Source: an uncultured SAR86 cluster bacterium
GTDB lineage: Bacteria; Pseudomonadota; Gammaproteobacteria; Magnimaribacterales; D2472
Assembly (NCBI GenBank): GCA_902613705.1
Contig: CACMIG010000001.1
Coordinates: 115,667 to 179,666 of the forward strand
DNA: 64,000 nt
Reading direction: 5' to 3'
Below the pieces are notes generated by a model. The model searched no databases, had not been told where the DNA came from, and saw only the letters and a list, made by a program, of their open reading frames with translations. The position numbers were made by a program, and so were the translations under genes. Below are positions 8,399-36,602 of this stretch, one piece after another; within the stretch, counting starts at the first letter, position 1; each line of letters begins with the position of its first letter.

Positions 8399-9085
8399 TC
8401 ATCGTCTTGAAAGTATAACGATCCAGCGGCCAAGATTTAAAATATCGGCTAGTGCAGCCGACACATATGTCAGAGCTGCTGCCCTAAGAACCTGACTAAC
8501 GGCTTTTTCATTTGACTGCGATACATAATTCCCTTCCCTTAATATGGGTAAGGCTTTAGAAAAACTTGCATCAAATTCAATAGGCAATGTGACTGCATGA
8601 ACCATCATGCGAGCAATAAAGCCAGACAGCCCTAAGAATAGTAATAAAGAAAATGGCATTGGATGCCTCGTAATAATGCCGATTACTGGCGATAATGAAA
8701 TAATGGAAACGCTCCATCGGGCTACCACATCAACAACTGGAGCCATCTTTGTTCTTGTAGCCAGCCGTTTATCACCTTGATGATCTTGGATAGCATGTCC
8801 AACCTCATGAGCAGCAATAGCGATTGCGGTCAACGACTTTGATTCATAATGCTCTCGTAAAAGTCTAACTTTTTTTTCAATAGGATCATAATGATCTCCA
8901 AGCTCAGTTGTTTCAACCTCAACATCTTTTAAAGAAAATCGCTTAATCAAATGCTTTGCGAGCTCTCCACCAGTGCCAGGCATTTCAGGCTTTTCAGTTG
9001 AATAACGCCTCATGACAAACTTCACCCACAAAGATGGTCCAAATATTATTGCTAATACTATTAGGGCGCCTAACGCGTACAACAT
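8399..9085 (-). CDS. membrane-anchored zinc metallopeptidase (Zn_peptidase_2 family)
   Basis: HEVGHAIQ zinc motif and HYDP...VRL pattern typical of this family. Confidence 0.8.
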   Translation of the reverse strand: MLYALGALIVLAIIFGPSLWVKFVMRRYSTEKPEMPGTGGELAKHLIKRFSLKDVEVETTELGDHYDPIEKKVRLLREHYESKSLTAIAIAAHEVGHAIQDHQGDKRLATRTKMAPVVDVVARWSVSIISLSPVIGIITRHPMPFSLLLFLGLSGFIARMMVHAVTLPIEFDASFSKALPILREGNYVSQSNEKAVSQVLRAAALTYVSAALADILNLGRWIVILSRR

Positions 9086-9104
9086 ATTTTATCCTTGTAA
9101 AAAA

Positions 9105-9479
9105 TTATTCTTTTACTTGTTCTTTTCTGAGAGTATATCCTGCTAATAAAGCTAAAATAAATAAAGCTGGTATGTCACCTAAAAAATGTCCCATTTCATG
9201 GCTATCGATGGCGGCTTGATAAGCCATAATCCCTCCATGAACAACACTGCTCCATACTACAAACCAGACAAACATTGAATGTCTTACTGGGTCGTTTGAG
9301 GCAATTATCATCATAACTCCAAGGGTCATATAGACTCCTTGAATCATCATTTCGTATTCCCATTGAGCAGGACTCCAGGCCCAACCACCCAAAGGATCTA
9401 ATTTCATCATTGGGATAATAAATATAAAAGCTACTCCAAAGACTCTTAAAGTATTCTTTAATATCAATAAATTGTTCAT
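9105..9479 (-). CDS. hypothetical membrane protein (distal array module)
   Basis: 124 aa, three to four TM helices, strong SD (AAAGGAGTAAGAT-ATG) immediately after repeat unit R1. Confidence 0.6.
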   Translation of the reverse strand: MNNLLILKNTLRVFGVAFIFIIPMMKLDPLGGWAWSPAQWEYEMMIQGVYMTLGVMMIIASNDPVRHSMFVWFVVWSSVVHGGIMAYQAAIDSHEMGHFLGDIPALFILALLAGYTLRKEQVKE

Positions 9480-9498
9480 ATCTTACTCCTTTATCAAC

Positions 9499-9567
9499 AA
9501 ACTCACAGTTAAAACTTACTCTACCGTGACTGATTAGTTTTGAACAGTGATTTGATTTATCTTTCAT
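9499..9567 (-). repeat. array unit R1: arm + glmS 3'-end copy + arm
   Basis: degenerate arm aaactcacagtt 9499-9510; glmS-end copy 9516-9533 reads TCA GTC ACG GTA GAG TAA (SVTVE*) on the minus strand; arm aacagtgattt 9543-9553. Confidence 0.85.
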
Positions 9568-9745
9568 TTTCTACATCCTCCAAAATAATGTGTTCCATAA
9601 GAAAAGGTGGAACATATAACACCCTTGATTACACTTCCTCTTTCGCCACTTGGAACATATATAAAAAATGAAATGACAATTGTTGAAATTATTATAAATA
9701 TATAAAGATGTTTTTTTAAAAAACCCACTTATAAACTAATTACTT

Positions 9746-9813
9746 AAATCACTGTTTAAACTTACTCTACAGTGACTGACTTGAACAAAACAGTGATTTG
9801 ATTTTTTATTCAT
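9746..9813 (-). repeat. array unit R2
   Basis: arm aaatcactgtt 9746-9756; copy 9762-9782 reads AAG TCA GTC ACT GTA GAG TAA (KSVTVE*); arm aacagtgattt 9789-9799 plus conserved gattttttattcat tail. Confidence 0.9.
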
Positions 9814-10012
9814 TGTTTTTTAAAAGTTGATGTCTGTAGAAAAGAATGCCGAACCAAATTGAAAAGATAAAAACTTCTAGGGTTATCATCAAATTATAAT
9901 TTTCAACAAAATTGGGAATAATGATAATTGTCAGCATGCCGAAGAATCCAGTTAATGTTCCACCTACAAAAGAATCGTTTTTCTTAAGATAGTTCTGTAA
10001 CATTTCTTTCAT
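9806..10012 (-). CDS. small membrane protein (array module)
   Basis: 68 aa, two TM helices; bounded by a 12-bp inverted arm pair (9788-9799 and 10016-10027); stop codon lies in the conserved repeat tail. Confidence 0.5.
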   Translation of the reverse strand: MKEMLQNYLKKNDSFVGGTLTGFFGMLTIIIIPNFVENYNLMITLEVFIFSIWFGILFYRHQLLKNNE

Positions 10013-10015
10013 CTT

Positions 10016-10076
10016 AAATCACTGTTTCCTTTATCTCCACCATCACTGATTGGTTTTAAACTTTGATTTAATTCTT
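10016..10076 (-). repeat. array unit R3 (stop codon of the glmS-end copy deleted)
   Basis: arm aaatcactgttt 10016-10027; copy 10035-10049 reads TCA GTG ATG GTG GAG followed by ATAAAGG, the same heptamer that follows the real glmS stop; degenerate arm aaactttgattt 10057-10068. Confidence 0.8.
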
Positions 10077-10519
10077 TATTTTCCAGTTGAAATATTTATT
10101 GGAATTATAGCGATCTTTAATTTCCAATAATCTCCTCTTTTTATTAAAGTTATATTTGTATCGGTAGATATAAGTTCAACATCTTGGTTGTTAAATCTGG
10201 TGAAGTTAGTTTTATATATTGCAAAATCTTCTTGTGAAACTATTGGATCTATTGAATTGATTTTTGAATATGCCCAACCTTCTTTTTTTAAGTTTTCATA
10301 ATTAACAATTTCACTATAACTTTTTGCAACTATTATTTCATCGCCAACAAAATAAGTCATTGGTAAATCCCATAGTTCATTAATTTTATTTATATCCATC
10401 TCATTGAAATGATAGAAAAAATCTTCGATAACTTTCTCTGGGTTGTTGTTTGCGTCTTTTGCAAATAACAAAGAAGAAAATAAAAATGAAGTTAATAAAA
10501 TGTTTCTAATATAAATCAC
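10076..10519 (-). CDS. secreted NTF2-fold-like hypothetical protein (array module)
   Basis: 147 aa with signal peptide; GTG start lies inside an orphan arm; fold call is tentative. Confidence 0.5.
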   Translation of the reverse strand: MIYIRNILLTSFLFSSLLFAKDANNNPEKVIEDFFYHFNEMDINKINELWDLPMTYFVGDEIIVAKSYSEIVNYENLKKEGWAYSKINSIDPIVSQEDFAIYKTNFTRFNNQDVELISTDTNITLIKRGDYWKLKIAIIPINISTGK

Positions 10520-11039
10520 TGTTTTCTTCTATTAATTTATTTTTATATAATCTTGTTCCAACTAAAAGGTCGCTGTTATATTCTCTTACTTTATAGATTA
10601 AATTGTCTTTAAACTTAAAAACCCAAACATATTTATTGTCGTATTCACCATTTATGCCCTCAGCATCTCCTTCTTGAATTAGCGCGACACCTTCAGTATC
10701 TGCAATTATGTCAATGGTCTTTAATACTATTCCATTTGGTAATAGCTCGCCAACAACTGGCCAATAATCTGAAAAGAAATCCTCTTTCCCGTAAGAAATT
10801 CCCCCTTTACCATATGGCCCATTTACATTTTCAGTTATGCCCATATAGATAAAGGTAAATTCTTCGTGCATTGAATTTTTTACATCATCCAAGTTGTTTG
10901 ACAAAAGATTGTCTATCCAATTTTGGGCTAATTCAATATTTTCATTAGTAACTTTGTCGACTTCGATATATTGCACATTTGAATACTCACATGAGAATAA
11001 AAACATCAAACCAAAAACTAACATGTAAATTTTTTTCAT
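10506..11039 (-). CDS. SnoaL/NTF2-like lipoprotein (array module)
   Basis: start moved to MKKIYMLVFGLMFLFSC (lipobox, SD GAGAGAGGA upstream); the ORF-track start is 11063. Confidence 0.55.
   Translation of the reverse strand: MKKIYMLVFGLMFLFSCEYSNVQYIEVDKVTNENIELAQNWIDNLLSNNLDDVKNSMHEEFTFIYMGITENVNGPYGKGGISYGKEDFFSDYWPVVGELLPNGIVLKTIDIIADTEGVALIQEGDAEGINGEYDNKYVWVFKFKDNLIYKVREYNSDLLVGTRLYKNKLIEENSDLY
10513..10523. repeat. orphan arm (aaatcactgtt) at the junction of two array ORFs
   Basis: exact 11-mer identical to the left arms of R2, R3 and R8; no adjacent glmS-end copy. Confidence 0.6.
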
Positions 11040-11130
11040 AATTAAATCCTCTCTCACTTTCATATATCCTAAATAATATTTAATACATAATAAATTATAT
11101 TTAATAAGTACATTTTTTATACTTATTTTT

Positions 11131-11216
11131 AAAACTCACACATAATATGAGGTTATAGCGAAAAACCGAGAAAACTTACTCTACAGTTAATGATTAATTT
11201 TAAACAGTGATTTAAT
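11131..11216 (-). repeat. array unit R5 (left arm displaced by a ~30-bp insertion)
   Basis: degenerate arm aaaactcaca 11131-11140; copy 11176-11193 reads TCA TTA ACT GTA GAG TAA (SLTVE*); arm aacagtgattt 11203-11213. Confidence 0.8.
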
Positions 11217-11243
11217 TCTTTATTTTCCAGTTGAAATATTTAT
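11209..11243 (-). repeat. 35-bp exact duplicate of the 3' end of the 147-aa module (10065-10099)
   Basis: gatttaattctttattttccagttgaaatatttat is identical at both sites and covers the last 8 codons plus stop of ORF 10076..10519. Confidence 0.9.
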
Positions 11244-11264
11244 AGATGAAAGTACGTATATCCT

Positions 11265-11316
11265 TCATTCGACGGTGATTGATTAGATTTGAACAGTGAT
11301 TTGATTTTTTATCCAT
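11265..11316 (-). repeat. array unit R6 (no left arm)
   Basis: copy 11265-11282 reads TCA ATC ACC GTC GAA TGA (SITVE*); arm gaacagtgatttgattttttatccat from 11291. Confidence 0.8.
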
Positions 11317-11503
11317 AATTGTCTGAAAAATATTTTTCTCTATCTTCTTTATTCATGCCAACTGTTTCGTTCATAAAATTGTTTCTATCTTCTCTAGATT
11401 TGAAGACCCATATACAAACAGTGTCCTGTGAGTGATAGATTGCTTTTAGTTCATCATCTATTTCACAGATTTCTTTTGGGATTTCTGTCTTAATACAAAT
11501 CAT
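11309..11503 (-). CDS. hypothetical protein (array module)
   Basis: 64 aa; ATGA overlap with the upstream ORF; stop codon inside the conserved repeat tail. Confidence 0.45.
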   Translation of the reverse strand: MICIKTEIPKEICEIDDELKAIYHSQDTVCIWVFKSREDRNNFMNETVGMNKEDREKYFSDNYG

Positions 11504-11886
11504 GACTCAAATCTTAACTTTCTGTGTATCAATGTAAACAAACCTGCTCCAATTATAGTCCATAGAATATCATTCCAATCGAAGACACCTCTTCCAGGTG
11601 TAAAAATTGTAATGAACTCATTGGCAATTAATCCCGATATGGAGATTCCTACTGACCAATAGAGTCGATTTTTAAATAAAGATGAATTAGGTTTGGATAC
11701 TTCTGGAATTACTACATATAACAGAGCAGGCAATCCAATTCCTGGCAAGAAATTTGGAGCAACCCCAAGAAGATAAATTATTATTTCATTAGCACCATCA
11801 TAATTTGGTCTTATGTAATCCTGGACTATAGAAAAAAGCAAAAAAGAAATAGCAAAAATAATGTAATAAACGAACTTTCTATTCAT
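11500..11886 (-). CDS. membrane protein, possibly VanZ-like (array module)
   Basis: 128 aa, four TM helices; ANEF...PGRGVFDWNDILWTIIGAG loosely resembles VanZ-family motifs. Confidence 0.5.
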   Translation of the reverse strand: MNRKFVYYIIFAISFLLFSIVQDYIRPNYDGANEIIIYLLGVAPNFLPGIGLPALLYVVIPEVSKPNSSLFKNRLYWSVGISISGLIANEFITIFTPGRGVFDWNDILWTIIGAGLFTLIHRKLRFES

Positions 11887-11891
11887 TTAAT

Positions 11892-11933
11892 TTATTCAAC
11901 AGTTACTGATTAAGTTCGAACAGTGATTTACTC
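11892..11933 (-). repeat. array unit R7 (no left arm)
   Basis: copy 11892-11909 reads TCA GTA ACT GTT GAA TAA (SVTVE*, all changes synonymous); arm gaacagtgattta 11918-11930. Confidence 0.85.
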
Positions 11934-12056
11934 TTCCTTGTAATCGTCTGCGAGAATCCCCTTTTCTTTTAAAGTCTTTGTAAGTTTTTCTAGACGCACA
12001 AGTGCAACCACTCCGACCATTCCAAACACAAAACCCATTACTGCCAACCCTTCCAT
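11928..12056 (-). CDS. unlisted 42-aa membrane peptide (array module)
   Basis: hand translation MEGLAVMGFVFGMVGVVALVRLEKLTKTLKEKGILADDYKEE; SD AAAGGGAGAG 4 nt before ATG; bounded by perfect 13-bp inverted arms; below the ORF-track size cutoff. Confidence 0.55.
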   Translation of the reverse strand: MEGLAVMGFVFGMVGVVALVRLEKLTKTLKEKGILADDYKEE

Positions 12057-12070
12057 AATTCTCTCCCTTT

Positions 12071-12104
12071 AAATCACTGTTCCAACTTACTCCACCGTAA
12101 CGAA
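12071..12104 (-). repeat. array unit R8 (arm + glmS-end copy)
   Basis: arm aaatcactgtt 12071-12081; copy 12087-12104 reads TTC GTT ACG GTG GAG TAA (FVTVE*). Confidence 0.85.
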
Positions 12105-12108
12105 GTAT

Positions 12109-12126
12109 ATAAAGGTGTCTACTTTT
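12109..12126. repeat. left 18-bp terminal inverted repeat of the GIY-YIG module
   Basis: ataaaggtgtctactttt is the exact reverse complement of 12747-12764; overlaps the stop codon of the GIY-YIG ORF. Confidence 0.9.
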
Positions 12127-12733
12127 AATTTTCTTCAACTTCCCTTCTTAATTCTGATAGTGTTTTACCATTATGTGTCCAAAATCTAGGACCTTGGATT
12201 TTCCCCCAATTATAACCTTGTTCATTCATTAGAATTAATGCTGCACTTGAAAGAGAATGGTCTTGTCCTCGAAAATTAACTCTAGTTTTTGAGGTTACCT
12301 CACAAGTAATATTTTCATCTCTTGTAAATTTTAATATTGTTCCAGGTTGGATATTTACCATATTAAAATTAAATCGTTCTCTTATTCTTGTCTCATTTTC
12401 AAAGGCAACTCTATCTTCTTCGGTTTCAAAGTTTTCTCCTTGTGGGGTTACATCATTGCCTGGTATCAAATCAAAAAAATGTATTAATTCTTCCTCAAGA
12501 ATCCTAAAGAATTCTCTTCTGTTATTAAGTCTTTTGCTGCCAAATGCAGCATGAAGTTTTGTTTCAACAAAATCCATGTCTTCTACTTCTTTTGCGTAAA
12601 TACATTCAAATGGCAATGGAACTCCTGTGCTATATAAAGATGATAGTCTTTGTTCAAGATTAGTGGTTTTGCCTATTTTTACCAAATCTGGCATTGCGGG
12701 ATTTGTTAAAACATAAATTATCCCTTTTGACAT
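12125..12733 (-). CDS. GIY-YIG nuclease superfamily protein (T5orf172/MUG113-like N-terminus, possibly DUF4357-like C-terminus)
   Basis: GIIYVLTNPAMPDLVKIGKTTNLEQRLSSLYSTGVPLPFE matches my recollection of the T5orf172 pattern; the C-terminal LSSAALILMN...NGKTLSELR call is tentative. Confidence 0.65.
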   Translation of the reverse strand: MSKGIIYVLTNPAMPDLVKIGKTTNLEQRLSSLYSTGVPLPFECIYAKEVEDMDFVETKLHAAFGSKRLNNRREFFRILEEELIHFFDLIPGNDVTPQGENFETEEDRVAFENETRIRERFNFNMVNIQPGTILKFTRDENITCEVTSKTRVNFRGQDHSLSSAALILMNEQGYNWGKIQGPRFWTHNGKTLSELRREVEEN

Positions 12734-12746
12734 AATTTTATCTAAA

Positions 12747-12764
12747 AAAAGTAGACACCTTTAT
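12747..12764. repeat. right 18-bp terminal inverted repeat, abutting the glmS stop codon
   Basis: aaaagtagacacctttat ends 1 nt before the glmS TAG (12765-12767). Confidence 0.9.
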
Positions 12765-14591
12765 CTACTCCACCGTGACTGACTTTGCTAAATTTCTTGG
12801 TTGGTCAATGTCGGTTCCTCTTAACAAAGCTACTTCATAAGAAAGTATTTGAAGAGGTATCGTATAAATGATTGGCGTCAAAAGGAAGTCGCACTTTGGC
12901 ATATTGATGAGTCTTCCAGACTTTAAGTCCATTGAAATTGAAGGATCAGAAAATACATATAGAGTTCCGCCCCTAGCTTTAACTTCTTCTAAGTTTGATA
13001 CTAATTTTTCAGCTATCTCACTTTCTGGAGCTAAAGCAATAACTGGCATTTCTTCATCAATTAATGCGAGAGGACCGTGTTTTAACTCCCCAGCTGGATA
13101 GGCTTCAGCATGAATGTAAGAAATTTCTTTGAGCTTTAGAGCCCCTTCTTTTGCGATTGGATAAAAAATACCTCTGCCTAAAAACAAAGCATTATCTTTA
13201 TTAGCTATTTCAGGTGCGATTTCTAGAATTGTGTCTTTAAGTTTTAATGTTTCTTCGACCGTTTCTGGCAATGATCTTAATGCTGTTATTACTCTTGTTC
13301 TTAGCTTTGGATTTTTTCCCCTGCTTTTTGCAAGAGACAAAGCTAGCAACATTAAGGCTGCAAGTTGTGTTGTGAAGGCTTTTGTAGAGGCAACTCCAAT
13401 TTCAGGACCGGCGTTCGTAAATATTGAATACTCTGATTCTCTTGCAAGAGAACTTGTAGGAACATTACAAACACAAAGGGTGGATAGATAATCCTTTTCT
13501 TGTGCATATCTTAAAGCAGCAAGGGTATCAGCTGTTTCTCCAGATTGAGAAATTGTTACAAGGAGAGAGTCATCGTCCACATGGGGATTTCTATATCTAT
13601 ATTCAGAAGCATAGTCTATTTGTGTAGGAAGTTCTGAAATTGCTGAAAACCAATTAGCTGCAACCCTTCCAGCATGCAAGCTTGTTCCACAGGCCACAAT
13701 TTGGACTCTCTTAACTTTTTCGAAGATTTCAGATGAACCAAGACCAAATATATTTTCTAAAACATCGTCTCCGCCTACTCTCCCATCAATGGTCTTTAGA
13801 ATTGCTTCTGGTTGCTCATAAATTTCTTTCTCCATGAAATGCCGATATTCGCCTTTAGATATAGCTTGACTTGAAATATCTATTTGAGAAATTTCTCTTT
13901 TTACTTTGTTCTTAGACTCATCAAAAATGGTATAAGTCTCAGATGATAATTCTGCTACGTCTCCGTCTTCTAAAAAAATAAACTCATTGGTAAGTTGGCC
14001 AATCGCCAATGGGTCTGATGCAGCCAAAAATTCATCCATTCCAATTCCTATTAAAAGTGGAGATTTGCTTCTAGCAATAATAATATTTTGATCGTCTTCT
14101 TTGTCTATAGCTGCTATTGCATAAGCGCCATCGAGCTTTTCTTTGGTTAAATACATTGAATCTAACATGCTATTTCCTTTATTAAGGAAATATTCAAGAA
14201 GGTGAGCTATTAATTCAGAATCTGTTTGGGATGAAAAAGAATAACCTTCTTTTTTTAAAAAATCTTTAAGATCTAGATAATTCTCAATTATTCCATTGTG
14301 AACGATATAAACTCTTTCATTTGACATATGTGGATGTGCATTTTCTTCTGATGGTTCTCCGTGAGTTGCCCATCTAGTGTGAGCAATGCCAAGCTTACTT
14401 TTTGGCTTTTCAGCAATCATTTTTTCTTCTAGTAGCTGTACTTTTCCTTGAGTTCTAAGATGAGCAATTTGGTCTGTTTGATGAAGAGCAATTCCAGCAG
14501 AATCATAGCCACGGTATTCCATTTTATGTAGTCCTTGAACAAGCAACTTTCCAACGTTTCGATTTGAGGCAGCAGCTATAATTCCACACAT
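12765..14591 (-). CDS. glmS: glutamine--fructose-6-phosphate aminotransferase
   Basis: MCGII N-terminal nucleophile, 608 aa, canonical C-terminus LAKSVTVE. Confidence 0.97.
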   Translation of the reverse strand: MCGIIAAASNRNVGKLLVQGLHKMEYRGYDSAGIALHQTDQIAHLRTQGKVQLLEEKMIAEKPKSKLGIAHTRWATHGEPSEENAHPHMSNERVYIVHNGIIENYLDLKDFLKKEGYSFSSQTDSELIAHLLEYFLNKGNSMLDSMYLTKEKLDGAYAIAAIDKEDDQNIIIARSKSPLLIGIGMDEFLAASDPLAIGQLTNEFIFLEDGDVAELSSETYTIFDESKNKVKREISQIDISSQAISKGEYRHFMEKEIYEQPEAILKTIDGRVGGDDVLENIFGLGSSEIFEKVKRVQIVACGTSLHAGRVAANWFSAISELPTQIDYASEYRYRNPHVDDDSLLVTISQSGETADTLAALRYAQEKDYLSTLCVCNVPTSSLARESEYSIFTNAGPEIGVASTKAFTTQLAALMLLALSLAKSRGKNPKLRTRVITALRSLPETVEETLKLKDTILEIAPEIANKDNALFLGRGIFYPIAKEGALKLKEISYIHAEAYPAGELKHGPLALIDEEMPVIALAPESEIAEKLVSNLEEVKARGGTLYVFSDPSISMDLKSGRLINMPKCDFLLTPIIYTIPLQILSYEVALLRGTDIDQPRNLAKSVTVE

Positions 14592-15975: not shown

Positions 15976-16389
15976 TTACTGTTTTTTTCGCAGTTTTTGA
16001 ATAGTTTTTAGCCTCGCAACAGCTTCTGCGAGTTGGGCTGAAGCTTTTGCATAATCAATTGTTGTGTCTTTATTTGCAAGTTCCTGCTCAGCGACTTCTT
16101 TAGCTTTAATAGCCTCGGACTCGTCTAGGCTTTCCGCCCTTTCTGCAGTATCAGATAAAACAGTTACCAAATCTGGTTGAACCTCTAAGAATCCTCCAGA
16201 ACAGAAAAATGTTTCTTCATCCGGCCCATTTTGAACTCTAACAGGTCCAGCAGCTAGCCCCGTTAAAAGTGGTGTGTGGCCGGGTGCAATTCCAAGCTCT
16301 CCCAAAGTTCCAGTAGCAAACACCATAGTTGCTTCCCCAGAATAGATTTCCTCACTTGAAGAAACAATATTTATTTTTATGGTATTCAT
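15976..16389 (-). CDS. atpC: F0F1 ATP synthase subunit epsilon
   Basis: 137 aa, operon position after atpD. Confidence 0.9.
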   Translation of the reverse strand: MNTIKINIVSSSEEIYSGEATMVFATGTLGELGIAPGHTPLLTGLAAGPVRVQNGPDEETFFCSGGFLEVQPDLVTVLSDTAERAESLDESEAIKAKEVAEQELANKDTTIDYAKASAQLAEAVARLKTIQKLRKKQ

Positions 16390-16391
16390 AT

Positions 16392-18663
<2,272 letters not shown>

Positions 18664-24408: not shown

Positions 24409-24988
24409 CTTTGCATAATAAAACTATGTTTCTTTCTTTTGTTGTGTCTTGATTGATTATTTCATATCTGAACATATTTTTGTCGATATCTTTTAACTCC
24501 TTTTTTATGTTTGATGCTTTTCCTTTAAGTAAAAGGTATTTTGTGTTTTTGTGGGTATTTGTTTTTGTAAGGTTTGTTGTTTTTTCAATAGTGGCAAAAG
24601 CTCTTGAGGTTATAATGTCAAACTTGCCTAGCTTATTTTTTTTGGTGATTGTTTTGTTAATTATTTCTGTATTCTTTAGGTTTAGTTCGTAGGATACTTT
24701 TTTTAGAAAATAACACTTCTTGTTATTGCTCTCTAATAAGCTTATTTTGTTTTCTGGTTTTGTTATTGATAATAGTATTCCTGGGAAGCCCCCTCCAGAA
24801 CCAAGGTCTAATACACTTTCATTTTTTTTTATATGATCAATTAATGGCTTGCAGTCTAAAATATCGTTCTCATATACCTCGTTATAGGATTCTCTTGAAA
24901 AAATGTTGTGGTTTTTGTTGAAGTCTAGAGCAAGGTTTATGAATGTTCTTATTTTGTTTTCTTGTTCGTCTGAAAAGACTCTAGGCAT
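24401..24988 (-). CDS. rsmG: 16S rRNA (guanine527-N7)-methyltransferase
   Basis: [13 protein letters not shown] motif, position after mnmG. Confidence 0.9.
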
Positions 24989-26825
24989 GTTGTTTTAAAA
25001 TTTCTTTTTTCTTTATTTGAATCAATATAAGGTTTACTGCTGCTGGTGTTACGCCTTCAATTTTTGATGCGTGTCCTATGGTTTCAGGTTTGTGTTTGAT
25101 GAGTTTTTCCTTAACCTCATTGGAGAGTCCGGGTATGTTGTTGTATTTAAGGTCTTGGGGAATTTTTTTGTTGTTTTGTTTTTGTGTCTTTTTAATTTCT
25201 CTTTTTTGTTTTTCAACATAGCCCATATATTTTGATTCAGTTGCGGCTCTTTTATAAAGGTTTCTGTCTTTCTTTTTTGGTTTAAAAACCTTTGTTGTAT
25301 CAATGTCTGTTCTCTTTAAAAGCTCAAAGACATTTTTGCTTTCGTTTAGTTTTAGTGTTTTGTTTTTTCTGTCTATGATTTTTGTTGTTTTGATTTTTTT
25401 AATTGCTTCTAGAAATTTTTTATATTCCATTTCTTTGGTTGTGAAACTGTTTTTTCTTTCGGCGTCTACAAGTCCAGCATTAAACGCTTTTATTAGAAGT
25501 CTTTGTTCAGCGTTGTTTTGAGAAAGCATAAGCCTGTGTTCTGCTCTGCTTGTAAACATTCTGTAGGGTTCTGTAATTCCGTGAGTTGTTAGGTCATCTA
25601 TTAAAACCCCTATATATGCTTCGCTTCTTTTTAAAACCATGGGTTGTTTTTTTTGAATTGATCTCACAGCATTAAGGCCGGCTATTAAACCCTGGGCGGC
25701 AGCTTCTTCATATCCCGTTGTTCCGTTTATTTGTCCTGCTAAATAAAAATTATTAAGGAATTTTGTTTCTAGTGATGTTTTTAGGTTTCTTGGGTCTACA
25801 AAATCATACTCTACAGCATAGCCAAACTCGTTTATGATCGCCCCTTCGAGGCCTCTAATGGAGTGTATAAAATCTTCTTGTGCTCTTCTGGGCAGGCTTG
25901 TTGATATTCCATTAGGGTATATCAGATCTTTGTTTATGCCTTCGGGTTCAATAAATATTTGGTGGCTTTCTTTATCACTAAATCTATTTACCTTGTCTTC
26001 GATTGATGGGCAATACCTGGGCCCAATTCCCACAATATCTCCTGAATACATAGCTGACAAGTGAGTGTTTTCTTTTATGATTTCATGGGTTTTTTTGTTG
26101 GTTCTTGTTATAAAGCATGAAAGTTGTTTTTGATGTTTTTTTGGTCTGTTGTATAAGGACATCCATGGCGTAGGTTTTTCACCAGGCTGCTCTTCCATAT
26201 GGGATGTTGAAATGCTTGAAAGCTTAATCCTAGCTGGGGTTCCTGTTTTCAGTCTTCCCATGGGAAGTTTTAGTGAATAGAGTTTTTCAGATAGTGGTAT
26301 CGCCGTTCCATCACCCATTCTTCCGCCTTTAGTTACTTCATTTCCTACATACATCTTTCCGTTTAAAAATGTGCCTGTGGTTAAGATGGTTCTTTTTGCT
26401 AATATGTTTTGGTTGCTTGTTATTACCCCGGTTACTTTATTGCTTTTAATTAAAATATCTTCAACCTCATCTTCGTATACATCAATATTTGTTTTTTTTA
26501 GTATTTTTTGAACTGCTTTTTTGTAAAGATCTCTATCACACTGAACCCTTAAAGCCTGAACCGCATCTCCTTTTCTTGTGTTAAGTGTTCTATATTGGAT
26601 ACCTGACATATCAGTGGCTGTTGGCATCAAGCCACCCATAGCGTCAATCTCTCTGACTATGTGTGATTTACCCAAACCTCCAATTGCGGGATTACAAGAC
26701 ATCTGACCTATAGCTTTTTTATTAAAGGTGACAAGAGCGCATGACATACCTAATCTGTGCACAGCGTATGCTGCCTCAACCCCGGCATGACCACCTCCAA
26801 CAACTATCACATCGTATTTATTCAT
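24981..26825 (-). CDS. mnmG: tRNA uridine 5-carboxymethylaminomethyl modification enzyme MnmG (GidA)
   Basis: [19 protein letters not shown] motif, 614 aa. Confidence 0.96.
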
Positions 26826-27036
26826 TAATAATTAAACTTTAATATCTATATTATATACTTTTTGTTATTTCTATTATGTTGATTGTTTTCTGTTAAAAAC
26901 TCATGCAATTCCTTTTTTTACATAGGATTATTTGATTTATAAAAACGGTTAAGCTTTGTTTAGAAACGGGTAACAAATACTTAACAAGTTGTTAGCAAAA
27001 AAAACAGTACAAAATTATTAACAAATAAATAACAAC

Positions 27037-28350
27037 CTATTTACCAATACAATAACTTCTAAATATATCTCCCAATAATGAATCTGAAAATTTTTCACCA
27101 ACAAGCTCATCAAGGCATGACCTTGCTAACCTAAGATCCTCAGCAACCAAATCCAAAGATAAATTCTCTTTTAAACCTTTTTGAGCAGAGACTAAGTTTT
27201 TAACAACATCCTGAAACAATTTATTATGCCTGTCTCTTATCATAAATTTATAGTCGTCTTTTTTAACACCCTTATTAAAAGAAGATAAAATTAATTTTTT
27301 AAGATCATCAAAACCATCACCTGTTTTAGCTGAAACACAACAGTCAAAATAATCAAAGTTCTCTTTATTAATATCAGTCTTATTCTGAACAGATATAAAA
27401 GATGTGTTTTTTGCTAAATCCTTAAAATTTTTGATTAAAGTTTTATCAAACACATCAAAAACTCCCATTACCAAATCAGCGTTTTTGATTTGAGATAAAG
27501 ATAAATCAATGCCCACACCCTCAATTTTATTATCAGTTTCTCTTATACCAGCAGAGTCTTGTATGGAAAAGACATTAGACTCGTAAAAAAGCTCACTGCT
27601 AATAATATCTCTTGTAGTGCCAGGTGTGTTTGAAACAATTGCCCTTTCAAAACCCAGAAGCCTATTAAACACAGAAGACTTGCCTGAGTTAACAGGACCA
27701 ACCAAAAGCACATTATTCTTTTGAGAAAACATTTTTTTATTAACACAACCAGACACAAAAGAGTTAAACCTGTTTACAAGGTTGCCCAAACCATCAACCA
27801 GCCCTTCATCCATATACTCATTACCCTCGTCAGAAAAATCAATTTCAGCCTCTACCCGCACTCTAATTTGATCAATTTCATCCGCAAAAGAAGAAATATT
27901 TGAAGACAAACCACCAAACAAAGAACTACCAGACAACACAGCCTCCTTATCATCTGTAGCATCTATAAGGTCTCCCAAAGCCTCAGCTTCATTCAAGCCC
28001 ATTTTATTATTCAAAAAAGCACGTTTGGTAAACTCACCCCCAGCAGCCTCATCAAAACCAACACTCTTAAACAAGGTAACAAAAGAAGACATTACAGCAA
28101 GGCTTCCATGTGCATAAACCTCAAAAGAATCTTCACCCGTATAACTATTTGGACCTTTAAAAACCAACAAACCAGCCTTATCAACCAATCGATCACCTTT
28201 ATAAAAACCCCTGACATGAAAACGACCAATTTCAAAACTTTTATTTTTAATAAGTTTTTTTAGCCCAGAATGACACCCTTCACCCGAAACCCTAAATATA
28301 CAAATGGCTGACTTGGCAGGCGGCGTTGCTAGCGCAAAAACAGGATGCAT
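27037..28350 (-). CDS. mnmE: tRNA modification GTPase MnmE (TrmE)
   Basis: GPVNSGKSS G1 motif, C-terminal CIGK. Confidence 0.93.
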   Translation of the reverse strand: MHPVFALATPPAKSAICIFRVSGEGCHSGLKKLIKNKSFEIGRFHVRGFYKGDRLVDKAGLLVFKGPNSYTGEDSFEVYAHGSLAVMSSFVTLFKSVGFDEAAGGEFTKRAFLNNKMGLNEAEALGDLIDATDDKEAVLSGSSLFGGLSSNISSFADEIDQIRVRVEAEIDFSDEGNEYMDEGLVDGLGNLVNRFNSFVSGCVNKKMFSQKNNVLLVGPVNSGKSSVFNRLLGFERAIVSNTPGTTRDIISSELFYESNVFSIQDSAGIRETDNKIEGVGIDLSLSQIKNADLVMGVFDVFDKTLIKNFKDLAKNTSFISVQNKTDINKENFDYFDCCVSAKTGDGFDDLKKLILSSFNKGVKKDDYKFMIRDRHNKLFQDVVKNLVSAQKGLKENLSLDLVAEDLRLARSCLDELVGEKFSDSLLGDIFRSYCIGK

Positions 28351-28352
28351 AG

Positions 28353-29879
28353 TTAGTCTGTATTAAGGGCGCCCTGCTGTTTGTAAAGATAGCTTTGTTG
28401 CCCAAGCTGAACACCAGTATTTACAACAGTATATAAACAAAGAGCAGCAGGGAAAAACAAAAAGAACACCGAAAACATTACAGGCATATACTTCATAACT
28501 TGTGCTTGGGTTGGGTCCATACCAGCGGGTTGAGGATTAAGCCTTTGTGTTAATATCATAAGCAAACCAAAAGCAGCAGGTAGAACAAAATATGGATCTG
28601 GAGCAGAGAGGTCTGTCCAAAAACCCAACGAACTATACCTTAACTCAACCATCTCTCTTAGAGCAAAAAAGAAGCCTATAAAAAACGGCATCTGAATAAA
28701 CAAAGGCAAACAGCCCCCAAGAGGGTTTGCCCCATGTTTTTTCATAAGTCTCATTGTTTCTGTTCCAGCTGCCTGGCGATCGTTCTTATACCTTTCTTTT
28801 ATCTCATTAAGCTCTGGAGTGATTTTTCTTAACGCAGCCATTGATTTAAAACTTTTAGCTGTTACAGGCCAAAACAACAACTTAATTAATATAGTAAATA
28901 TAATTATTGTTAAGCCCCAGCTATTAACATAACCATTAATAAAATCCATGACAAACACCATGGGTTGTGCCAAAAACCAAAACCAACCCATATCAATCGC
29001 TAGCTCTAAATTATCAGCCCTTTCCATAAGATCTTTTCTAATCTTTGGACCAACAAACAGCCTATGCTCATGACCATAAACCAGGTTGCTTGTTGAGGAC
29101 CCTTCTACCGTATAACCCATTCTGTAGAACCCAGACTCCTTTGGAAGAACGTAATAGTTATAAATATATTCATCTGAGCCAATAATGGCCGCAAAGAAAT
29201 ATTTTTGAACAAAAGCAACCCAACCAGACTTTGACAAAACCTCAAGGGGCTTATCGACCGAACTTAACCTCGATGTGGAATAAGGGTCAAGTTCTGTGCT
29301 TATCGCAACACCCTCATAGGAGCTGTTGTTCATCATTCCACCCTCAAGAGCACCCCTTTTCAAGTCAAGAGCCCTTCCTTTAGAACGATACAAACCTGCA
29401 AACGACTTACCATTAATTCCATTAACCGTTGAATCATAAACACTTACTTCATAACTAGCATCAGAAAAAGATATTTTCTTAGATACACCAAGCTCTGGAT
29501 CTAATAAAACGATAAAATCATCGCCTTTCTCTGAAACCTCATAAACTGGTGCGATTCCGGTAAACCCACTCTTAAAATAATATTGAAACGCCGAAGACTC
29601 AGAAGACCCAAACACCCTAAACCCCAAAGAACCATTTACATTTTCAACAGGATATTTTTTTAACCTCGCCTCAACAATAGAACCATTAGATACAGAAACA
29701 ACCAATGAAAGCTCATCGTTTTCAATTGAAACAAACTTGCTGTCATCCTTATAAAAGGACGACCCAACCATATCAAGGTGTTGTTTGATTGATTTTGTTT
29801 TTTGTTCTGAATTCCACTCATACAACAAAGCTAGAGAAAGAAAAACAATCAGAGCTAAATACAAACTTCTTATATTCAT
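28353..29879 (-). CDS. yidC: membrane protein insertase YidC
   Basis: 508 aa, large periplasmic domain then the conserved five-TM core (GCLPLFIQMPFF). Confidence 0.95.
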   Translation of the reverse strand: MNIRSLYLALIVFLSLALLYEWNSEQKTKSIKQHLDMVGSSFYKDDSKFVSIENDELSLVVSVSNGSIVEARLKKYPVENVNGSLGFRVFGSSESSAFQYYFKSGFTGIAPVYEVSEKGDDFIVLLDPELGVSKKISFSDASYEVSVYDSTVNGINGKSFAGLYRSKGRALDLKRGALEGGMMNNSSYEGVAISTELDPYSTSRLSSVDKPLEVLSKSGWVAFVQKYFFAAIIGSDEYIYNYYVLPKESGFYRMGYTVEGSSTSNLVYGHEHRLFVGPKIRKDLMERADNLELAIDMGWFWFLAQPMVFVMDFINGYVNSWGLTIIIFTILIKLLFWPVTAKSFKSMAALRKITPELNEIKERYKNDRQAAGTETMRLMKKHGANPLGGCLPLFIQMPFFIGFFFALREMVELRYSSLGFWTDLSAPDPYFVLPAAFGLLMILTQRLNPQPAGMDPTQAQVMKYMPVMFSVFFLFFPAALCLYTVVNTGVQLGQQSYLYKQQGALNTD

Positions 29880-30190
29880 TTTTTATCCATACTATCAGCA
29901 ATAGATCTCGCGGCTGAAGAGATCTCTTTCACCGCCTCTTCATATGATAACTCTCCAAAAGGACTAAATACAGAAAAAACCAAAATTCCGTCGGGCATAT
30001 CTATTGATAATTTTCTAAAAATTTCTTTTATCCATCTTTTGGCTTTGTTTCTCTCAACAGCAAGCCTAAAAAATTTTTTCGAGATTGATATTTTAAGCTC
30101 GCTATTTTTTGATCGCTTATAAAATATTCTAAAAAACTTGCAGGAATATAGACACTCAAAGGAGATAAATTGTTGATTGGATTTAGACAA
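29876..30190 (-). CDS. rnpA: ribonuclease P protein component
   Basis: AVERNKAKRWIKE motif; the ATG at 30280 would overlap all of rpmH, so a TTG start at 30190 is proposed (start uncertain). Confidence 0.75.
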   Translation of the reverse strand: MSKSNQQFISFECLYSCKFFRIFYKRSKNSELKISISKKFFRLAVERNKAKRWIKEIFRKLSIDMPDGILVFSVFSPFGELSYEEAVKEISSAARSIADSMDKK

Positions 30191-30191
30191 A

Positions 30192-30326
30192 CTAAGCGCT
30201 GAGAACCTTTCTACCCTTTTTTCTTCTGTTGGATAAAACAGCTCTTCCAGCCTTGGTTGACATTCTCGCACGAAAACCATGGGTTCTTTTTCTTTTTAAG
30301 TTGCTTGGTTGAAAAGTTCTCTTCAT
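30192..30326 (-). CDS. rpmH: 50S ribosomal protein L34
   Basis: hand translation [44 protein letters not shown]; below the ORF-track cutoff. Confidence 0.95.
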
Positions 30327-30419
30327 AATATCTAATGCTAAAAGTGTTGGGGATTATAGCGTAATAAGTTTTTAAAACCACAAAAATTGCTGTAAAACAC
30401 AATTTTTTTTATATACAAG

Positions 30420-30428
30420 TTATCCACA
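30420..30428 (+). promoter_or_regulatory. perfect DnaA box TTATCCACA
   Basis: exact 9-mer consensus in the rpmH-dnaA spacer, beside an AT-rich run (aattttttttatatac). Confidence 0.7.
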
Positions 30429-30459
30429 ACAAATTCCTATATTTATTCTGTAGATATCT

Positions 30460-30468
30460 TGTGGATTT
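30460..30468 (-). promoter_or_regulatory. DnaA-box-like site AAATCCACA (7/9)
   Basis: tgtggattt on the plus strand, inverted relative to the perfect box 31 nt away. Confidence 0.4.
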
Positions 30469-30502
30469 TTTAATAGACTATGAATCAAATAGGAGATAAT
30501 AA

Positions 30503-31795
30503 TTGGAACTTTGGAATAAGTGTTCTGAAAAGCTTGAAAATACCCTTTCTCAAGAAGATTTCAACACCTGGATTAGGCCCCTAAAGGCAAAAATTGATAA
30601 AAACACCCTTGAGCTCGTTGCACCTAACGACTTCATTTTAGACTACATAGAAAAAAACTATTCCAAAGAAATCAAAAAAATAGTTAAATCACAATCAAAG
30701 TCAAACATAAACCTTGTTTTTAAAACCCTCACAAAAGAAACCTTTATTGATAAATATAAAAACAATCAAAACTCAGAAATTAAATTAGTTGACGGATATA
30801 CTTTTGATAGCTTTGTTGAGGGAAAGTCAAATCACCTTGCTTTAGCTGCAGCCAAACAAGTCGCAGCCAATCCAAAGGGTGACTATAACCCTCTTTTTAT
30901 TTATGGTGGAGTTGGTTTAGGAAAGACACACCTGATGCATGCTGTTGGCAATGAGATTCTTAAAAACGAACCCAAAAAAAGAATTGTTTATGTTCATTCA
31001 GAGAAATTTGTATCTGATATGGTCAAGGCGCTTCAATTGGGCGCAATGAATGAGTTCAAATCATTTTATAGAAACGCCGACGCTCTTTTGATTGACGACA
31101 TTCAGTTCTTTGCTGGCAAGGAGCAGTCTCAAGAGGAGTTTTTTCATACTTTTAATGCTTTGTTGGATAGAAACAATCAAATGATATTAACATGTGACAA
31201 ATATCCAAAAGAGATTGATGGCCTGGAAGAAAGGCTAAAATCAAGACTTGGTTGGGGCCTGCCTGTTGTTATCGACCCACCTGAGCTCGAAACAAGAGCA
31301 GCGGTTTTACTAAGCAAGGCAAACTCAATGGGTATTTCTCTTCCTAATGATTGTGCAATATACATTGCCCAAAGAATAAGATCTAACATCAGGGAGCTTG
31401 AGGGAGCATTAAAGAGAGTTGTTGCAAATGCTAGATTTACAAATCAAGATGTTGACCTTTCTCTTGTTAAAGATGCACTAAAAGATCTTTTTGTAATCTC
31501 CGCAAAAATGATAAGCGTAGAGAACATACAAAAAACAGTTGCAGAATACTACAACATTAAACTTTCAGACCTTCTTTCAAAAAGAAGAAGCAGGTCGATA
31601 ACAAGACCAAGACAAATGGCAATGGCATTAACAAAAGAACTTACAAACCACAGCCTTCCAGAAATTGGAGAAGCATATAACGGAAGAGACCATACAACCG
31701 TTCTCCATGCTTGTAAAAAAATCAAAGAATTAAGAAAAGAAAGTCCCTCACATGAAGAGGACTACAGAAATTTAAATAGGGCCTTAACCAACTAA
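30503..31795 (+). CDS. dnaA: chromosomal replication initiator DnaA
   Basis: [10 protein letters not shown] Walker A, C-terminal [11 protein letters not shown]-binding motif; TTG start. Confidence 0.96.
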
Positions 31796-32898
31796 TGGAT
31801 TTCTATATAACCAAAGAAGAGGTTGTTAAATCGCTAAATCTAACACTTGGGGTTGTTGAAAAGAGACAAACGTTGCCTATTTTATCAAATGTTTTGTTTG
31901 AGGTTGATGAATCATCACTAAAACTTACTGCTACTGACTTAGAGAGTGAAATATCAACAACTTCAACAATTTCGAATTTTAAGAGTGGTGGAAAAACCAC
32001 CGCTCCCGCAAGAAAATTAAGTGACCTGTGCAGGCTTATGCCAGATCTGGCTGAAATTCATTTTTTTCTTGATGGGGATAATTTAAAAATAGAGACCGAG
32101 TCTGGTAAGTATAATCTCTCAACTCTTCCAAGCGAAGATTTTCCTGTTTTTGAAACAGAGGATACTCAATCCCAAATTAATATTTCATCTCAAAATCTAA
32201 AAAATTTAATTACCAGAACATCTTTTGCGATGGGTAATCAGGATTGGCGTCATTACTTAAACGGTCTTTATATGATGATAGATGATAAAGTTATTACTAC
32301 TGTAGCAACTGATGCACATAGACTTGCCATGGCAACTTCATCACTCAACGAAGCTTCGTCTGAATCAACAAGTGGGATTGTTCCAAGAAAATCTATTAAT
32401 GAAATTGGTAAGCTTGTTGGTGACGAATCTGAAAATGTTGTGATTCAACTTGGGCAAACTTCAATTGCAGCAAATGTTTCAGGCACTACTTTTGTTAGTA
32501 AATTAATTGAAGGCAAGTTTCCAGACTATGAACAAGTAATACCATCTGGTGAAAGTTCACTTTTAGTTGTTGATAGAAAAAATTTTTCAGAAAGCCTAAG
32601 CAGAGTTAGTGTTTTATCAAGTGAAAAATATAAGGGAGTAAGAATAATTACTAAAAAAGATTCTTTAAATATATCTGCCAATAATCCTGAGAAGGAACAG
32701 GGCGAAGAAAATCTTTCATGTGAATATAAGGGTGAAGAAATTGATATAGCTTTTAATGTTAATTATTTACAAGAAATATTATCTACTATTGATTCTGAAA
32801 AAATAGAAATCAATTTTTTTGGTTCAGAAAAAAGCTGCTTAATTACAGATCCAAATTCTGAAAATCTTAAATATGTCGTAATGCCACTTCTTATCTAA
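31795..32898 (+). CDS. dnaN: DNA polymerase III subunit beta
   Basis: 367 aa, C-terminal VVMPLLI, position after dnaA. Confidence 0.95.
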   Translation: MDFYITKEEVVKSLNLTLGVVEKRQTLPILSNVLFEVDESSLKLTATDLESEISTTSTISNFKSGGKTTAPARKLSDLCRLMPDLAEIHFFLDGDNLKIETESGKYNLSTLPSEDFPVFETEDTQSQINISSQNLKNLITRTSFAMGNQDWRHYLNGLYMMIDDKVITTVATDAHRLAMATSSLNEASSESTSGIVPRKSINEIGKLVGDESENVVIQLGQTSIAANVSGTTFVSKLIEGKFPDYEQVIPSGESSLLVVDRKNFSESLSRVSVLSSEKYKGVRIITKKDSLNISANNPEKEQGEENLSCEYKGEEIDIAFNVNYLQEILSTIDSEKIEINFFGSEKSCLITDPNSENLKYVVMPLLI

Positions 32899-32900
32899 AA

Positions 32901-36602
<3,702 letters not shown>

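Follow-up and report, generated by a model that had tools for sequence, protein, structure and literature searches.

In staphylococci, large serine recombinases insert the elements of the staphylococcal cassette chromosome (SCC) into the 3' end of a conserved housekeeping gene, rlmH, where direct repeats of the integration site together with inverted repeats bracket elements that carry restriction-modification cargo (PMC3900703). Composite SCC islands consist of tandem elements with six to eight copies of the site, and pseudo-SCC elements without a recombinase are known (PMC3900703). The additive islands or tycheposons of Prochlorococcus, Methylophilaceae and Alteromonas grow by serial integration at one site, with older elements lying further outward, and in these islands cargo abounds while few elements bear an integrase (10.1101/2020.12.28.424599; PMC10872708). 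Tycheposon integrases are mainly tyrosine recombinases (910/937) and target tRNA or tmRNA genes (10.1101/2020.12.28.424599; PMC10872708). The present analysis concerns an array of short gene modules at the 3' end of glmS in a 64,000-nucleotide stretch of DNA from an uncultured SAR86 cluster bacterium (contig CACMIG010000001.1, positions 115,667 to 179,666), referred to as the window. The array is probably the product of serial site-specific integration by large serine recombinases, with the crossover lying within the final 18 nt of glmS. SAR86 bacteria, with their small, streamlined genomes, belong to the most abundant uncultured bacteria in surface ocean waters.

The glmS gene of the window is intact and is preceded by the atp operon and glmU. 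Its final 18 nt, termed the live core, represent the gene-side half of the integration site. Downstream of the gene, six good copies and one decayed copy of these 18 nt are found. These displaced cores lie on the glmS strand, follow the degenerate pattern TCNGTNACNGTNGARTAR and still translate as the C-terminus of GlmS, with changes mostly synonymous, i.e. at third codon positions (an asterisk denotes the stop codon):

12765..14591, minus strand: glmS, 608 aa, Pfam SIS and GATase_6/7, reading frame ending in KSVTVE*
12765-12782: live core, TCAGTCACGGTGGAGTAG, SVTVE*
12087-12104, minus strand: displaced core R8, TTCGTTACGGTGGAGTAA, FVTVE*
11892-11909, minus strand: displaced core R7, TCAGTAACTGTTGAATAA, SVTVE*, five synonymous changes
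11265-11282, minus strand: displaced core R6, TCAATCACCGTCGAATGA, SITVE*
11176-11193, minus strand: displaced core R5, TCATTAACTGTAGAGTAA, SLTVE*
10032-10049, minus strand: decayed core R3, TCAGTGATGGTGGAGATA, SVMVEI
9762-9779, minus strand: displaced core R2, TCAGTCACTGTAGAGTAA, preceded by AAG and thus reading KSVTVE*; both arms 17-27 nt from the AC of the core
9516-9533, minus strand: displaced core R1, TCAGTCACGGTAGAGTAA, SVTVE*, the last copy still recognisable

The TTC variant of R8 accompanies the right end of GTAGACACCTTTAT-armed modules at about 15 other loci. R3 deviates from the core consensus by more than two mismatches and was therefore left out of the core and module counts across loci. 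All repeat units listed in a preliminary description of the window proved to be real and correctly placed, including an orphan arm at 10513-10523. The 11-nt arm AACAGTGATTT or its complement has nine exact matches, all between 9543 and 12081 and none elsewhere in the 64 kb. With one mismatch allowed, 12 matches are found against 3.0 expected, a number reached by 0 of 100 shuffles, and the central block of the units has 5 matches at ≤3 mismatches against 0 expected (100 shuffles). Scans of the window with Rfam and for tRNA genes found nothing, and in a promoter and terminator scan of the array such sites were no more frequent than in shuffles. The end of glmS is situated about 17.7 kb from dnaA; gidA, dnaA, dnaN and gyrB occupy positions 24981-35901 of the window, which places the array in the origin-proximal region of the chromosome.

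With one genome scanned per species, 80 loci with GlmS relatives of 59-98% identity were obtained, nearly all from SAR86 single-cell or metagenome assemblies. For core counts 76 loci were usable, with about 10 kb of sequence covered to either side of glmS. Downstream of the gene and on its strand, 105 copies of the degenerate core were counted, compared with none in the 687 kb of upstream sequence and a single one on the opposite strand; with ≤2 mismatches tolerated, 196 and 3 are obtained. Displaced copies number 0-9 per locus, at least one being present in 63 of the 76. Occurrence, confinement and variation in copy number thus mark the feature as clade-wide, tied to glmS and variable, and arrays are wholly different even between genomes with 97-98% identical GlmS. 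The modules have a median length of 660 nt. Altogether, 199 modules fall into 150 families, 27 of which recur with different neighbours and at different ranks; one recurrent family is found in nine loci behind eight different upstream neighbours, and family F4 is present twice within the single array of locus L020. Open reading frames (ORFs) of at least 100 aa are predominantly co-oriented with glmS (194 on its strand vs 52 on the other). The preliminary description had predicted presence/absence and order polymorphism with breakpoints in the units, and had named a confinement of the units to glmS and a similarity to the gene end beyond chance as tests; all three are borne out here.

The units are short inverted repeats and glmS is the classic target of Tn7, which could suggest a generic dispersed repeat of the REP (repetitive extragenic palindrome) or MITE (miniature inverted-repeat transposable element) type, or Tn7-type transposition into attTn7. 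However, the chromosome-wide copies typical of a REP/MITE family are missing both from the rest of the 64 kb and from the 687 kb of upstream flanks of the 76 loci, every copy lying on the downstream side of glmS. Insertion of Tn7 takes place past the stop codon, duplicates 5 bp and leaves the gene end uncopied, and no tns genes are present among the array ORFs inspected. An origin of either kind therefore has virtually no probability.

The position of the exchange was mapped by comparing units that have one flank in common and differ in the other. Identity at the variable positions of the core was as follows:

Core position 3: 0.90 with shared upstream flank, 0.22 with shared downstream flank
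Core position 6: 0.90 with shared upstream flank, 0.24 with shared downstream flank
Core position 9: 0.27 with shared upstream flank, 0.69 with shared downstream flank
Core position 12: 0.33 with shared upstream flank, 0.65 with shared downstream flank
Core position 15: 0.51 with shared upstream flank, 0.92 with shared downstream flank
Core position 18: 0.37 with shared upstream flank, 0.90 with shared downstream flank

The background level of identity is about 0.25-0.35 for positions 3-12 and rises to about 0.5 for positions 15 and 18. Positions 3 and 6 follow the upstream flank and positions 9-18 the downstream flank, which locates the switch across the invariant AC at core positions 7-8 in the Thr codon. 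Across all arrays, positions 9 and 12 show no linkage to the upstream flank, and their weak downstream linkage blurs the 3' edge of the exchange point. The same switch is seen where the identical recombinase-bearing element P0039 stands beside four different neighbours: the junction is constant up to ...TCCGTTAC and variable from position 9 onwards, and the junctions of P0008, P0026 and P0043 display the same constant-then-variable pattern.

The sharpness of this switch bears on the possibility that, after a first insertion, arrays are merely shuffled by homologous recombination between strains via glmS, shared modules and cores, with no ongoing site-specific recombination. Whole-locus exchange through conserved flanks could yield wholly different arrays at a GlmS identity of 97-98%, and gene conversion could account for the blurred linkage at positions 9 and 12. 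However, the flanks switch between positions 6 and 9 of an 18-nt core, and the breakpoints coincide with the dyad axis of the arms. Moreover, six core positions and both arms vary, so that the homology is far too short and mismatched for RecA-type exchange, and homologous shuffling is very unlikely as the source of the arrays.

Outward from AC, the half-site profiles are mirror images at positions 6, 7, 9 and 13-27, and in the units of the window the 11-nt arms are situated exactly 17-27 nt from AC on both sides. The arms thus have their dyad axis at the AC, which is also where the switch point was mapped, in a site of about 54 bp. A site of this length with dyad symmetry about a non-palindromic dinucleotide would have the geometry of large serine recombinase sites. 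Tyrosine recombinases require an identical overlap of 6-8 bp, to which a dyad site of about 54 bp with variable wobble positions beside the switch does not fit. A further motif, AGAAAGATTTCTCGGTTGGTCAA, follows the last core of several arrays (L024 11828-11850, L065 7527-7550, L085 13823-13845, L094 16088-16110, L104/L105, L119 and L138), and in L024 it stands directly after glmS without a displaced copy. The motif lies about 17-35 nt from AC and corresponds to the glmS coding stretch TTGACCAACCAAGAAAT (I-D-Q-P-R-N) in reverse complement; judged from this correspondence the unoccupied site itself may have dyad symmetry. Since the motif is also found internally in some arrays it is not a universal far half-site; it is a candidate for the ancestral one.

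The pairing of the arms was scored by local alignment over all arrays, the left end of a module being compared with the reverse complement of its right end. The two ends of one module reach a mean score of 9.4, with 46% of the modules scoring at least 10, whereas arms flanking one junction score 5.8, compared with 5.7 for random pairs. The inverted arms therefore belong to the two ends of each module and are not junction hairpins, which corrects the preliminary description, where arm, copy and arm had been taken as the functional unit. The hairpin-like appearance of the units in the window arises because neighbouring modules there share one arm family. End families differ between modules, examples being ATAAAGGTGTCTAC, GTTTAACCCGTCTTTC, ATTTGGTTGTACC, GTGCGAGTAGTGATTT and AACAAAACAGAGAAT, and the AACAGTGATTT arm of the window is one among them. 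Many modules with a GTTTAACCCGTCTTTC-type left end contain a perfect hairpin, CCCGCATTCTGCGGGG, about 25 nt inside this end (L010 12398-12440, L014, L016, L017, L064, L065, L069, L086 and L098), which may be a candidate terminator after glmS or a candidate binding site.

These scores also decide against an integron-like organisation, in which attC-type junction hairpins would be recombined by a tyrosine recombinase with the end of glmS as attI. The small, mostly single-gene cassettes, their common orientation (194 vs 52 ORFs) and the hairpin-like junction units of the window resemble such a system. Arms across a junction, in contrast, pair no better than random ones, for which reason the attC-like junction-hairpin model was rejected; none of the arrays examined contains an IntI-type gene, the enzyme encountered at the site belongs to the serine recombinases, and the variable wobble positions beside the switch would break the identical 6-8-bp overlap. 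An integron-like system is thus extremely unlikely.

One of the 80 GlmS loci, L006, contains a recombinase; the remaining 79 show no recombinase fragment. The L006 enzyme (551 aa, 16176-17831) comprises Resolvase (6e-24), Recombinase (1e-11) and Zn_ribbon_recom (3e-4) domains and matches the integrase family phrog_95 (3e-78). Its gene is located at the far end of the first module after glmS, a 6-kb module that also codes for a rolling-circle Rep-like protein. Marine metagenomes commonly contain homologues. In L081 (72% identity) and in L085, a SAR86 single cell (51%), the recombinase element is again the first module after glmS, followed in L085 by the T5orf172 module of the window and its Zn-peptidase flank. 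These elements are rare, measure 6-9 kb and carry a Rep-like gene of the rolling-circle type together with the recombinase. They are bracketed by a gene-side/left-arm site and a right-arm/neighbour site, and glmS is intact. Small conserved ORFs, such as those for proteins of 130 and 83 aa, are common to L006, L085, L089 and L094 and are candidates for a directionality factor. The preliminary description had noted no integrase or transposase in the 64 kb; a recombinase for the glmS site is nevertheless known from related genomes, where large serine recombinase elements occupy it.

A metagenome scan with an alignment of the recombinase added 80 further loci, which were pooled with the earlier recombinase loci. 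In 71 loci a glmS-type core follows within ≤260 nt of the recombinase match, at recombinase identities down to about 31% and in marine as well as freshwater samples. A wide recombinase clade thus has a glmS-type core just after the recombinase stop codon; the arms vary by lineage, and on contigs of sufficient length glmS is found 7-9 kb upstream. In L094 (1-16130), a 16-kb metagenome contig, three head-to-tail copies of a 7.1-kb Rep and recombinase element with a period of 7143 nt are linked through perfect right-arm/core/left-arm sites, and a right-arm/core/far-half-site junction closes the tandem. This contig reflects either a genuine tandem integration or circular and integrated forms that were assembled together. 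Among 195 recombinase-less modules, 45 have a right arm whose identity to the right arm of a sampled recombinase element reaches 75% or more; for shuffled arms the number is 0. Viral contigs contained neither a relative of the recombinase nor a window-type unit.

Two further observations concern these elements. A distant recombinase group of about 33-35% identity (L148, L149, L155, L156, L165 and L178) has glmS just after, and convergent with, the recombinase gene, and its elements are in the opposite orientation at the glmS end. The right half-core of recombinase elements is almost always TCCGTTAC, and live glmS ends as well as many recombinase-less modules, including those of the window, have TCAGTNAC.

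Serial stacking into the extreme 3' end of glmS, with a displaced copy of the terminus left by each event, had been proposed before and is supported here. In the mechanism that we favour, a circular module would carry an attP-like site of about 54 bp, composed of right arm, 18-nt core and left arm, with the arms as inverted repeats 17-27 nt on either side of the invariant AC. A large serine recombinase would exchange strands at this AC in the Thr codon, where it is predicted to cut. The incoming module would bring a new ...VE-stop end, keeping glmS intact, and the old glmS end would be displaced downstream. Repeated integration would build the stack, in which the newest module adjoins glmS. 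The enzyme would not be part of the array and would be supplied from the rare 6-9 kb elements that use the same site. The eight modules of the window would accordingly be recombinase-less passengers, either integrated in trans or carried in by recombinase elements and left behind. The enzyme may act in trans on recombinase-less modules, and the arm family of the window presumably has a large serine recombinase of its own.

Several points weigh against this interpretation. The 64-kb window holds no recombinase, as noted in the preliminary description and confirmed by tblastn for relatives of the large serine recombinase. The AAATCACTGTT arm of the window is found on no sampled recombinase element (71 junctions), the best identity being 0.65-0.70. 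Canonical large serine recombinases join only attP with attB, and every later integration would take place at a site of which one half stems from the gene and the other from a previous module, so that site choice would have to be relaxed. No free circle of a recombinase-less module was seen, and matching ends are absent in about half of the modules, some of which are fusions. At core positions 9 and 12 the linkage to the downstream flank is no higher than 0.65-0.69, compared with about 0.9 at positions 15 and 18, and cleavage at AC is a step that we infer from the mapped switch.

A more far-reaching version appears possible, though the balance tips against it: the recombinase-less modules of 0.2-2 kb would form a true cassette-exchange system, in which each module is cut out as a tiny circle with a symmetric attP of its own and re-inserted at the glmS end by serine recombinases acting in trans.

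The eight modules of the window are arranged as follows, in order from glmS:

12105..12764, minus strand: module 1, T5orf172/GIY-YIG-like gene, ORF 12125-12733, Pfam T5orf172 (3e-17) and MUG113
11910..12086, minus strand: module 2, 42-aa ORF 11928-12056; matching arms, left 12071-12081 and right 11919-11929
11283..11891, minus strand: module 3, fusion of two modules, 128-aa ORF 11500-11886 and 64-aa ORF 11309-11503; right arm 11292-11302
11194..11264, minus strand: module 4, 71-nt remnant without ORF, family F27; right arm 11203-11213
10050..11175, minus strand: module 5, fusion, 185-aa ORF 10506-11063 and 147-aa ORF 10076-10519; degenerate right arm 10059-10069
9780..10031, minus strand: module 6, 68-aa membrane-like ORF 9806-10012; left arm 10016-10026, right arm 9789-9799
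9534..9761, minus strand: module 7, 228 nt, family F29, no convincing ORF; left arm 9746-9756, right arm 9543-9553
9105..9515, minus strand: module 8, DUF6632 gene, 124 aa, 9105-9479, Pfam 4e-26; degenerate left arm 9500-9510

Module 1 harbours the GIY-YIG gene named in the preliminary description, and this assignment holds as T5orf172; its ends, however, differ from the common unit, consisting of a terminal inverted repeat of its own (23 nt, 12104-12126 / 12747-12769, 96% complementary) that is unlike the other arms of the window. The nuclease-type domain of this first gene, together with the related FVTVE*-marked modules in about 15 loci, could point to a homing-type nuclease that cuts the end of glmS, with break repair copying the modules. 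Yet the gene is delimited, as other cargo is, by the same core together with inverted ends of its own, and it is absent from most arrays. In L085 this module family, F10, occupies the second position, behind the recombinase element. A homing nuclease as the driving force is hardly credible on these grounds.

Several of the remaining modules recur in other arrays. Module 2, with an end-to-end alignment score of 17.5, is found in L015 behind a different neighbour (92% identical over 211 nt). The ORFs of module 3 have no Pfam match; its halves, the 128-aa and the 64-aa gene, are separate in many loci and stand in reversed order in L004. In module 5 the orphan arm (10513-10523) represents the left arm of the 147-aa module, the core of which is lost. 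The 147-aa gene is a stand-alone module between cores in L010, L004 and L057, and the 185-aa gene is a separate module in L004. Module 6 (family F6) stands alone in L006, L014 and L019 beside a different neighbour each time, and module 7 has an end-to-end score of 12.5. Module 8 has lost its far junction: no core is left at 9086-9104, and a conserved Zn-peptidase gene (8399-9085) comes directly after. The DUF6632 gene is a module between cores in L055.

Decay of this kind raises the question of whether the small modules are dead remnants, i.e. whether only recombinase-bearing elements ever integrated and internal deletions left immobile relics. Decay of cores and arms and fusion of modules are indeed observed (R3, the orphan arm, modules 3 and 5), matching ends are missing from about half of the modules, and the attP-like or tandem form is seen for recombinase-bearing elements only. 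However, 79 of the 80 arrays contain no recombinase or Rep fragment, and the cargo genes are unrelated to those of the recombinase elements. Small modules with intact ORFs and both ends recur across arrays, ranks and orders with breakpoints at AC, and one module occurs twice in a single array. Since recombinase fragments are missing in 79 of 80 loci and small modules recur intact beside different neighbours, the modules are not decayed recombinase elements, and an origin of the array as a row of dead relics is unlikely. Serial integration by large serine recombinases remains the favoured explanation of the array.

In other loci, larger cargo is observed: a DNA methylase with a Type III res-like helicase-nuclease (L035 13172-18069), a second pair of large genes of 610 and 744 aa (L075 4274-8351) and, recurrently, genes of the endonuclease/exonuclease/phosphatase family (L072 11830-12639; L057, L028, L064 and L045). 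Parts of the stack look like a small defence island.

A single site that gathers hundreds of mini-cassettes would explain how SAR86 samples accessory genes (150 families in 76 genomes), the cargo including membrane and secreted proteins, restriction-modification systems and nucleases. Now that site, switch point and candidate enzymes are known at base resolution, the question has become tractable. If the cassette-exchange version were true, the array would be the serine-recombinase counterpart of the integron and the main platform for gene acquisition in an abundant, streamlined marine bacterium, and the broad clade of glmS-targeting recombinases could be usable as landing-pad tools. This wide clade of serine recombinases, marine and freshwater, has converged on the universal target of Tn7 and is unnoticed in the literature searched. 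For genome engineering, serine recombinases whose site occurs naturally in almost all bacteria would be attractive tools. Literature searches, whose coverage is incomplete, found no description of glmS-targeting serine recombinases or of a SAR86 glmS array. New is apparently the combination of an SCC-like stack of mini-cassettes at glmS in SAR86 with a broad, apparently undescribed clade of glmS-targeting recombinases. The preliminary assessment that the architecture is without precedent was overstated, since SCC islands at the 3' end of rlmH and additive islands share its logic (PMC3900703, PMC10872708).

The comparison with other known systems delimits this logic further. The likeness to Tn7 is confined to the choice of glmS, whose near-universally conserved C-terminal coding end offers a safe landing site. 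Tn7 transposes by TnsABC+D to a position downstream of the stop codon, where it duplicates 5 bp and leaves no copy of the gene end, whereas here the duplicated segment is the 18-nt gene end, the breakpoint lies inside the coding sequence and the inspected array ORFs include no tns genes. Integrons share the small, mostly single-gene and co-oriented cassettes, insertion at the proximal end and a very large pool exchanged between strains. They differ in that the gene beside the array is here glmS, with no IntI tyrosine recombinase there; the arrays have yielded a single kind of recombinase, a serine enzyme that resides on a separate mobile element, and the junctions are not self-pairing attC hairpins. 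With elements mobilised by large serine recombinases the system has in common an element-encoded enzyme of resolvase, recombinase and zinc-ribbon domains, present in related loci and not in the window, as well as the regeneration of the target gene, which leaves hybrid sites of the attL/attR type. The sites of such enzymes measure about 40-50 bp and have an imperfect dyad and a 2-bp crossover; the site described here spans about 54 bp about the axis AC, with a blurred 3' edge of the switch.

On the analogy of their organisation, the SCC composite islands and the tRNA-linked additive islands are best read as the closest known systems. As in additive islands, partial copies of the 3' end of the target gene separate the stacked elements. 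The differences are a protein-coding gene end as target, a serine recombinase as enzyme, copies that stay 'translatable' with synonymous variation, and inverted ends belonging to each module. From SCC the array differs in its target, the 3' end of glmS instead of rlmH (orfX), and in its enzyme, which is not a Ccr protein (NCBIfam bit scores against cut-off: CcrB 80.8/900, CcrA 60.3/700, CcrC 45.2/900). Its modules are smaller by a factor of 10-100 (median 660 nt), many having one tiny ORF, the host is a streamlined marine gammaproteobacterium, and the recombinase elements also carry a rolling-circle Rep-like gene. The SCC site is close to the replication origin, and the glmS end lies about 17.7 kb from dnaA; restriction-modification cargo is found in both systems. 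Direct repeats, terminal inverted repeats and tandem stacks that include recombinase-less elements are likewise shared, and the recombinase-less modules of the window mirror the ccr-less pseudo-SCC elements. In this comparison the glmS array appears as a miniature Gram-negative counterpart of the staphylococcal SCC cassette islands.

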